Shown piece after piece: positions 2,776 to 3,001 of a stretch of DNA of 6,001 nt. The stretch's first letter is position 1. Each line of letters begins with the position of its first letter. The stretch comes from a virus (lineage: Duplodnaviria; Heunggongvirae; Uroviricota; Caudoviricetes): the IMG/VR virus record IMGVR_UViG_3300013741_000057; one strand, given 5' to 3'. Below the pieces are notes generated by a model that worked only from the letters and a program-made list of their open reading frames with translations, made no database searches and was not told where the DNA came from. The position numbers and the translations under genes were made by a program.

Positions 2776-2791
2776 CTGTAAGTAACCACAG
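2776..2791. promoter_or_regulatory. SOS-box-like motif CTGT-N8-ACAG (CTGTAAGTAACCACAG)
   Basis: The only CTGT-N8-ACAG match I found by manual scan. It lies about 30 bp upstream of the candidate GTG start at 2822. The spacer is less AT-rich than a consensus LexA box, so any affinity may be modest. Confidence 0.3.
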
Positions 2792-2821
2792 AGAACTTTA
2801 CCTGACTGTGGGGGGCGAGTT

Positions 2822-3001
2822 GTGCAGGAACTTAACCGCTGGTTTCGTGACGGAAGAGGGCTTTATGTTCATGTTATTCGTTGGGAGCCAGAAACACAGC
2901 GCGTTATCTATCTTCGCAAAGACTACCCGCATGAGTGCTTTAGTCCTTTGTGGAAATTCAGGCGTGATTTTGTTGAGTGTGAAGGACCACCAGCACATTG
3001 A
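2822..3001 (+). CDS. Candidate small prophage protein (59 aa) hidden in an alternate frame of listed ORF 2673-3701
   Basis: GTG start with a G-rich RBS-like run (GGGGGG 2810-2815); stop TGA at 2999-3001. The translation VQELNRWFRDGRGLYVHVIRWEPETQRVIYLRKDYPHECFSPLWKFRRDFVECEGPPAH looks like the small conserved prophage proteins I recall as DUF4222-type (unverified). Arg codons are mostly CGN here, while the overlapping frame-0 reading uses AGA/AGG further upstream. Against it: no ATG start, a Trp/Arg-rich composition, and the unlikely chance openness of frame 0. Confidence 0.4.
   Translation: MQELNRWFRDGRGLYVHVIRWEPETQRVIYLRKDYPHECFSPLWKFRRDFVECEGPPAH

Follow-up and report, generated by a model that had tools for sequence, protein, structure and literature searches.

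We analysed a 6,001-nt stretch of the viral record IMGVR_UViG_3300013741_000057 (Caudoviricetes), called the window below, with a focus on a 59-aa open reading frame (ORF) that starts with GTG at position 2822 and on the palindrome CTGTAAGTAACCACAG, which lies just upstream of it. The original prediction had tentatively taken the palindrome for an SOS box and the ORF for a hidden small gene controlled by DNA damage, through the host LexA or a LexA paralog encoded by the phage. In our view, the ORF is probably a real DUF4222 gene, placed fourth among the cistrons of the PR operon and controlled by an S24-type repressor, and the palindrome probably arose by chance and does not serve as a LexA operator. 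The window represents the early-right region of a lambdoid prophage of the SfV/mEp460/ST64B type. In a megablast search, positions 2600-3300 were found at 99-100% identity in hundreds of E. coli chromosomes, including UTI89 and NU14, and were also matched by the phages mEp460 and SfV and by several Stx phages.

The 59-aa translation matched the Pfam family DUF4222 (PF13973) with an E-value of 9.5e-14 and 51.1 bits (cut-off 27) over profile positions 4-51 of 53, matched phrog_1343 along its entire length (residues 1-59 of 59, E 1.1e-36) and was identical to the RefSeq entry WP_001341559.1, a 'DUF4222 domain-containing protein'. A word-indexed search returned 33 homolog clusters, nearly all of 57-62 aa and named DUF4222, and a full hidden Markov model search of 1.84 billion representatives returned only 78 relatives, mostly of 55-80 aa. 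The family is narrow and standalone, and the profile search proposed with the original prediction found homologs that are small genes in their own right. These results demonstrate that 2822-3001 is a genuine, conserved small prophage gene of an already catalogued family, as had been supposed when its translation was described as a real small prophage protein in an alternate frame. The CGN codons remarked on at the time account for six of its eight Arg codons, and its absence from the ORF list follows from a length one residue under the default 60-aa cut-off. Compared with the other DUF4222 proteins, the window protein has the same size and the same place after a CII-like gene, and nothing distinguishes it from them. 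Where a longer overlapping frame has been called, members of this functionally unassigned family usually go without annotation; WP_001341559.1 was annotated in only 1 of the 20 top-ranked genomes from the megablast search. NCBIfam holds no model for the 59-aa protein or for YmfM, and a literature search found DUF4222 mentioned in gene lists only.

The position of the gene is as constant as its size. A standalone gene of 59-62 aa occupies the same place, after the repressor, cro and the CII-like ymfL, in prophages of more than 10 enterobacterial genera, and the order S24 repressor, cro, CP76, DUF4222, replication gene was kept in diverged phages and in 35 genome loci (Citrobacter, Enterobacter, Kluyvera, Kosakonia, Phytobacter, Raoultella, Atlantibacter and others). 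The DUF4222 stop codon of relatives shares nucleotides with the start of the replication-initiator gene; the window has an isrK-C4-ant module and a 74-aa ORF inserted between the two genes. In 43 of 44 loci, the aligned ORF opens with a start codon (GTG, ATG or TTG) preceded by a Shine-Dalgarno (SD) sequence; the remaining one (L031) has an early stop. The SD occupies the same place in the homologs, as AAGGAG 8 nt upstream of the TTG in e14 and as GGAGGG in the Enterobacter/Kluyvera group. In Stx1a phages, homology at the DNA level starts exactly at the ORF, which there begins with ATG and follows an unrelated upstream gene and unrelated DNA.

To assess selection in the alternative frames, codon-position entropy and frame-wise identity were calculated from 40 distinct sequences. 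In the DUF4222 frame, nucleotide entropy at the three codon positions was 0.53, 0.37 and 1.16, and pairwise amino-acid identity over the ORF was 0.75, compared with 0.47 in the annotated frame (frame 0) and 0.45 in a control frame. Over 177 nt, the window differs from ST64B at 21 nucleotides, of which 15 are silent in the DUF4222 frame, 1 in the annotated frame and 3 in the third frame; the 42 differences from a Stx1a phage are silent in 28, 7 and 6 cases, respectively. These substitution patterns point to purifying selection in the DUF4222 frame. They also bear on the reading that treats DUF4222 as an annotation artefact and the 59-aa frame as unexpressed, the real product being the long 383-aa frame-0 protein of the Rha family. 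Most RefSeq and GenBank records annotate only that long frame, and frame 0 is indeed open throughout; its amino acids are nevertheless conserved over 2822-3001 only as well as those of the control frame, it crosses two RNA genes confirmed by Rfam as well as an intrinsic terminator, and the Phage_pRha domain is found only after ATG 3279. We regard this reading as hardly credible.

The same evidence shows that the 383-aa 'Rha family' annotation is over-extended by approximately 200 codons, because the frame crosses the DUF4222 gene, the isrK and C4 RNA genes and the terminator before the Phage_pRha domain begins, at residue 21 counted from ATG 3279 (E 1.8e-31). Frame 0 of the window reads through DUF4222, isrK and C4 into the antirepressor gene, and this is the origin of the annotation. 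The loop of the C4 RNA, CUUUGGUGA, is complementary to UCACCAAAG at 3259-3267, just upstream of the ant ribosome-binding site. The probable isrK promoter overlaps the DUF4222 stop codon, in agreement with the location of PisrK directly upstream of isrK (PMC4825925), and is nearly identical in the window, ST64B and the Stx1a phage. The combination of isrK, C4 RNA and a Rha/AnrP antirepressor has the same architecture as Gifsy-1 isrK-orf45-anrP and the P1-type immI (C4 RNA-ant) (PMC4825925). The DUF4222 gene lies upstream of PisrK, outside the described Gifsy-1 module, and the orf45-equivalent frame of the window is fused in frame to ant, as noted for S. dysenteriae (PMC4825925). As a separate observation, the Pfam family Phage_ASH (PF10554, E 9.7e-12) matched the translated isrK-C4 region (3021-3275, frame-0 residues 117-201); this family may largely model a translated regulatory-RNA or leader region of the orf45 type, and not an ordinary protein.

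The palindrome is the only CTGT-N8-ACAG on either strand of the window, and 30 nt separate its end from GTG 2822, both as originally described. Such a core is expected 0.07 times per window and occurred at least once in 15 of 200 shuffled sequences (p ~0.075), which is unremarkable for one of many motifs open to a reader. The 145 nt that separate the ymfL stop from GTG 2822 do not form an intergenic region; they are homologous to the N-terminal coding region of YmfM, and the palindrome encodes residues AVSNHR of the YmfM-like ORF in frame 0, homologous to V-x-CNHS in relatives. Its left half, CTGT in the window, is replaced by TCGT in ST64B and C. braakii, the two closest of the diverged relatives, and is unrelated elsewhere, so that only GTAACCACAG is invariant in an alignment of 16 sequences. 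A search of 45 other DUF4222 loci found no CTG-N10-CAG whatsoever within the 250 nt that precede the gene. The conserved right half is part of the YmfM-like coding sequence; a scan of viral contigs for it returned almost only near-identical copies of the window's lineage and was uninformative on conservation. These results indicate that 2776-2791 is most likely a lineage-specific chance palindrome inside a coding sequence, and not a LexA operator.

The site's heterology index (HI), whose calculation the original prediction had proposed, came out at approximately 16, outside the binding range. The matrix used was rebuilt from the sequences of about 30 E. coli operators and is not the published one of Lewis et al.; the values for the 20-mer GGCTGTAAGTAACCACAGAG (16.0-16.4) are accordingly approximate. 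With the same matrix, the approximately 30 known operators had an HI of at most 10-12 when they were in the sample and at most 12.4-15.9 when left out, polB being the worst, and shuffled versions of the window contained, per 6 kb, 1.3-3 sites whose HI was as good or better. The HI distribution of K-12 is bimodal, with a low-HI peak near 7.3 that likely represents LexA binding and a high-HI peak near 22 (PMC12527982). Relative to operators of the type TACTG(TA)5CAGTA (HI ~12-13 or less), the palindrome lies outside the range although its CTGT-N8-ACAG core is exact. It shares with canonical LexA operators the perfect core upstream of a small phage gene, and differs from them in its GC-containing spacer (AAGTAACC instead of (AT)4) and its poor flanks. 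A consensus scan for sigma-70-like promoters (threshold 9/12) over 1700-3400 on both strands found no site, leaving the palindrome without an overlapping promoter; the probable isrK promoter scores 8/12, below this threshold. A manual search around the inverted repeat for a leftward CII-type promoter found nothing conserved.

Taken as a functional host-LexA operator on an internal promoter, the palindrome would make the small gene a direct member of the SOS regulon. The perfect core, the only one in the window, at 30 nt from the start codon speaks for this, as do the resemblance of its right half to the weak but functional polB operator and the existence of LexA-controlled modules in other prophages (PMC3121763). 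The HI outside that of all known operators (rebuilt matrix), the lack of a sigma-70 match, the coding-homologous location and the absence of the left half from the nearest relatives and from all 45 other loci argue against it. ST64B lacks the palindrome, yet its homologous transcript is still induced by a quinolone (PMC12626290), and sfiC/e14 was reported not to be repressed by LexA (bioRxiv 10.1101/2020.11.19.390815). The LexA-controlled modules of other prophages also differ in layout: those of Gifsy combine an upstream terminator, a promoter and a box (PMC3121763), the Gifsy boxes having an HI of 3.9-4.6 at about 19 nt from the ATG (PMC8072944), whereas the window site, compared with the Gifsy dinI-antirepressor and 186 tum modules, has no promoter or upstream terminator, is coding-homologous and is not conserved. 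We judge direct control by host LexA through this site, as originally predicted, to be very improbable.

A second possibility is that the palindrome is the operator of the phage's own LexA-like protein, which would repress or activate the small gene. The paralog placed about 2.5 kb downstream by the original prediction is indeed present: it is a 108-aa protein consisting of a LexA DNA-binding domain (Pfam E 3.3e-19) without the S24 cleavage domain, is assigned to phrog_362, and scores below the cut-off of TIGR00498. It is 43% identical to residues 1-86 of E. coli LexA and largely keeps the recognition helix (NAA-EHL), and the truncated phage LexA homologue GIL01 gp6 acts as an activator (PMC6182141), a precedent which, together with the solitary CTGT-N8-ACAG, favours such a role. 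The phage mEp390 carries the paralog as a full-length match, and the SfIV and S. flexneri loci match it partially at their ends; in none of them was a CTG-N10-CAG found near ymfM/DUF4222. Since the palindrome is missing from relatives that carry the paralog, 2776-2791 is not a conserved operator for it, and no promoter overlaps the site. Control by the paralog through 2776-2791 appears even more remote than control by host LexA.

Several points weigh against the reading of the palindrome as a chance occurrence and against the regulation proposed below. The rebuilt matrix makes absolute HI values approximate, and polB, which functions as an operator although it is weak, has the ACCACAG half in common with the site and reaches an HI of 12-16 when left out, so that weak LexA binding at the palindrome is conceivable. 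In addition, GTAACCACAG (2782-2791) and GTGGG (2808-2813) are invariant in 16 diverged sequences, synonymous positions included, and loci of the e14 type read the motif (GTAACCCACAG) in a shifted codon register; such invariance is not fully accounted for by coding constraint alone. Finally, we infer both the initiation at GTG 2822 and the operon structure. A possible RNA hairpin between the site and the start codon (CCACAG...CTGTGG) was considered and rejected, as its invariant helix comprises 4 bp, shows no covariation and has a free energy of -4.9 kcal/mol.

For the regulation of the gene, gene order and the published behaviour of homologous prophages suggest the following scheme. DUF4222 would be the fourth cistron of the PR operon, after the cro-like gene, the CII-like ymfL and the YmfM-like ORF, and would be translated from its own GTG with a G-rich SD. 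In the lysogen, the S24-type CI repressor would shut PR and keep DUF4222 silent; upon DNA damage, RecA-stimulated autocleavage of the repressor would permit its expression, so that induction would be indirect and not via LexA. A plus-strand terminator scan of the cistrons ahead of DUF4222 found one weak terminator-like site, inside cro, and no strong one. In ST64B, the transcript of sb41, which has the same fused frame, increased after ciprofloxacin (PMC12626290), and in e14, ymfM is SOS-induced, the authors stating that LexA does not control it and that the CI-like CohE probably does (bioRxiv 10.1101/2020.11.19.390815). By analogy with these prophages, the locus is very likely DNA-damage inducible. 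The part of the original prediction that called the gene DNA-damage-controlled is thereby retained as probable, in view of the quinolone-induced homologous regions of ST64B and e14, and the part that assigned this control to the palindrome gives way to repressor cleavage as the probable route.

The small gene overlaps a second reading frame. The MNSLT ATG with its SD, which starts the gene annotated ymfM, is conserved in e14, SfIV, mEp390, ST64B and most genome loci. DUF4222 lies in the -1 frame relative to this ATG in all 35 loci in which it was found, at a distance of 143-179 nt that is always 2 mod 3, and in nearly all 35 the YmfM frame is open for 108-115 codons. In most loci, it ends 17-26 nt upstream of the DUF4222 stop, and further upstream where DUF4222 has a C-terminal extension; in the window, ST64B and C. 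braakii, the usual YmfM stop is absent and the frame runs on into ant. Before the overlap, the largest (167-nt) group is clearly coding in frame 0 (entropy 0.40/0.33/0.62), with the motifs MNSLT..PQLRMIPVPG..FRYERR.SNRWV.CNHSRA..IVGVYYRRAK. The window subgroup has diverged in this part (8 synonymous and 20 non-synonymous differences from L017), with a weak coding signal, and its frame-0 ORF matched phrog_1170 (YmfM) at residues 47-98 only, the part that overlaps DUF4222, the N-domain motifs being largely lost. We call the N-terminal part in the window homologous to the YmfM N-domain and make no claim as to its functional status. Across the overlap, the YmfM frame is open in all 40 distinct sequences, an outcome whose chance per sequence, given the DUF4222 protein, is ~0.04 under E. 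coli codon usage and ~0.29 under the family's own usage, and its amino acids are no more conserved there than those of the control frame.

The constant -1 relation in the 35 loci with the MNSL ATG, together with a G-run (G GGG GGC) just upstream in the window, could mean that ribosomes enter the DUF4222 frame mainly by a programmed -1 frameshift out of the YmfM-like ORF, with an N-domain::DUF4222 fusion as the product, rather than by independent initiation. The conserved start codon and SD at the head of the ORF argue for independent initiation, as do the Stx1a phages, in which the gene has an ATG start and no YmfM-like N-terminal part. Moreover, the G-run is not conserved (GGGAGA and GGGTGA in relatives) and no conserved slippery heptamer takes its place, no stimulatory structure was found apart from the rejected hairpin as sole candidate, and frame 0 stays open past the putative shift site, which a model based on shifting only does not require. 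The frameshift route is improbable, if slightly less so than either LexA-based explanation of the palindrome, and initiation at the gene's own start codon remains our preferred reading.

In E. coli K-12, the e14 prophage likewise contains an embedded 59-aa DUF4222 ORF, in the -1 frame within ymfM (b1148, 'cell division inhibitor YmfM'). This ORF is unannotated in NC_000913.3, and its stop overlaps the start of ymfN/oweE. Compared with e14 ymfM/SfiC, frame 0 of the window starts at the same MNSLT ATG overlapping the ymfL stop, and both loci appear to belong to a repressor-controlled, SOS-inducible early operon. The e14 YmfM frame stops about 20 nt before the DUF4222 stop, with the replication gene directly next, whereas the window frame has no stop and continues into isrK-C4-ant; in addition, the N-terminal part of the window frame has diverged from e14 YmfM, lacks the IPVPG motif and has a weak coding signal. 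Among the ymfM-type frames compared, the published filamentation phenotype belongs to the e14 ymfM clone only. If the pBAD24-ymfM clone spans the annotated ORF as the paper describes, it includes the internal SD and 53 of the 59 DUF4222 codons. As such a clone would carry most of the DUF4222 ORF and a ymfM deletion would take it out, the published genetics may not separate the two frames. A tentative and rather unlikely proposal is that ymfM/DUF4222 is a dual-coding locus in which the role of the SfiC division inhibitor may fall to the DUF4222 protein, either in place of the YmfM frame or alongside it. A literature search combining ymfM with overlapping genes gave top-ranked matches that do not mention ymfM.

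The AlphaFold2 (AF2) model of the 59-aa protein is confident and has five strands forming a barrel plus a helix (predicted local distance difference test score, pLDDT, 85.9). DUF4222 is predicted to form a small SH3/Tudor-like beta-barrel and would most plausibly act in early phage development as an accessory factor that binds proteins. The fold does not justify assigning a specific function, the structural neighbours being generic SH3, Tudor, KOW and DUF1653 barrels. Separately, one 2473-aa protein of the representative library (P0042) matched the DUF4222 profile in 16 separate stretches; in a family that otherwise consists of proteins of about 60 aa, this is either an unexpected repeat architecture or an artefact.

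As regards the original prediction, these results change little: a candidate member of the SOS regulon is removed and a catalogued small gene of unassigned function is confirmed. Their practical use lies in annotation. In thousands of E. coli genomes, the 383-aa 'Rha family' label covers a real small gene, isrK, C4 and a terminator, and in K-12 the annotation lacks the homologous small gene even though ymfM, within which it lies, has a published cell-division phenotype. If the small protein were to contribute to this phenotype, the 40-year-old sfiC assignment would need revising. The features of the window and of the related loci are collected in Table 1.

Table 1. Coordinates of the features of the window and of related loci; positions refer to the window unless a locus is named.
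Feature	Position	Strand	Basis or remark
CI-type prophage repressor, S24 autocleavage domain	1116-1790	-	Peptidase_S24 E 1.3e-26; repressor in annotation
Probable PR	1832-1859	+	TTGAAG-16 nt-TAATAT, from sequence
cro-like gene	1882-2081	+	
CII-like ymfL	2113-2676	+	Phage_CP76 E 1.4e-14
Long frame-0 ORF, annotated 383-aa 'Rha family' protein	2673-3824 in intact copies	+	1152 nt, RefSeq/GenBank
N-terminal part of YmfM-like ORF, frame 0	2673-2821	+	ATG overlaps ymfL stop (ATGA); SD GGAGAA
CTGT-N8-ACAG palindrome ('SOS box')	2776-2791		
G-rich SD-like stretch GGGGGGCGAG	2810-2819	+	3-12 nt upstream of GTG 2822
DUF4222 small gene, 59 aa, GTG start	2822-3001	+	-1 frame relative to YmfM-like ORF
Probable isrK promoter	2998-3026	+	TTGATT-17 nt-TACACT, from sequence; predicted +1 at 3033
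isrK small RNA	3033-3109	+	Rfam RF01394, 67.9 bits vs gathering 50
Intrinsic terminator of isrK	3087-3109	+	Terminator scan
C4-type antisense RNA	3134-3221	+	Rfam RF01695, 83.6 bits vs gathering 45
Rha/AnrP-type antirepressor gene, first part	3279-3700	+	Probable true start ATG 3279
74-aa ORF	3787-4011	+	
Replication gene	4008-4826	+	
PerC-like gene	4823-5317	+	
LexA-DNA-binding-domain-only protein	5317-5643	+	ORF listed 5284-5643, probable start ATG 5317; Pfam match as in text
e14 DUF4222 ORF	L010:3502-3681 = MG1655 ~1,204,001-1,204,180	+	TTG start, SD as in text
LexA-like boxes at repressor gene, related prophages	L004:367-386 (ST64B sb38), L014:1195-1214, L017:225-244, L033:195-214, L029:203-222, L039:207-226		

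Two further observations were made on LexA-like sequences. The best LexA-like 20-mer of the window is AATTGATTATAAATCCAGTT (915-934), with an HI of 8-9.8 (rebuilt matrix); it sits at the stop codon of an AT-rich 69-aa ORF (711-920), before a terminator-like hairpin (945-966) and not at a promoter, and the match probably arises from the AT-rich composition. Near-consensus LexA boxes (e.g. TACTGTTTTTATATACAGTA, HI 2.2-5.6, rebuilt matrix) were found in related prophages that belong to another immunity type, either within the S24 CI-type repressor gene or at the place it occupies. The box of ST64B and of L014 falls in the linker that joins the helix-turn-helix and S24 domains. CTGT..ACAG is preserved although the residues encoded there differ (TVCKHS, TVCEYS, TVYKNS), a pattern suggestive of selection on the box itself. 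The repressor gene of the window has no such box. A literature search found no description of LexA boxes within these S24 repressor genes and nothing on LexA boxes in ST64B.

Two minor points concern the region downstream of DUF4222. A run of 10 N at 3622-3631 stands in for about 44 nt, the offset to the intact CH4797 copy changing from +401 to +435; this run breaks the frame, and the antirepressor ORF is consequently truncated in the ORF list of the window. In an over-expression screen, UTI89 4,997,073-4,999,597, which corresponds to window positions ~3085-5575 of the same prophage, caused filamentation (PMC6206680). As this stretch begins just downstream of the DUF4222 gene, another gene is responsible there (ant, the 74-aa ORF, the replication gene or the PerC-like gene).

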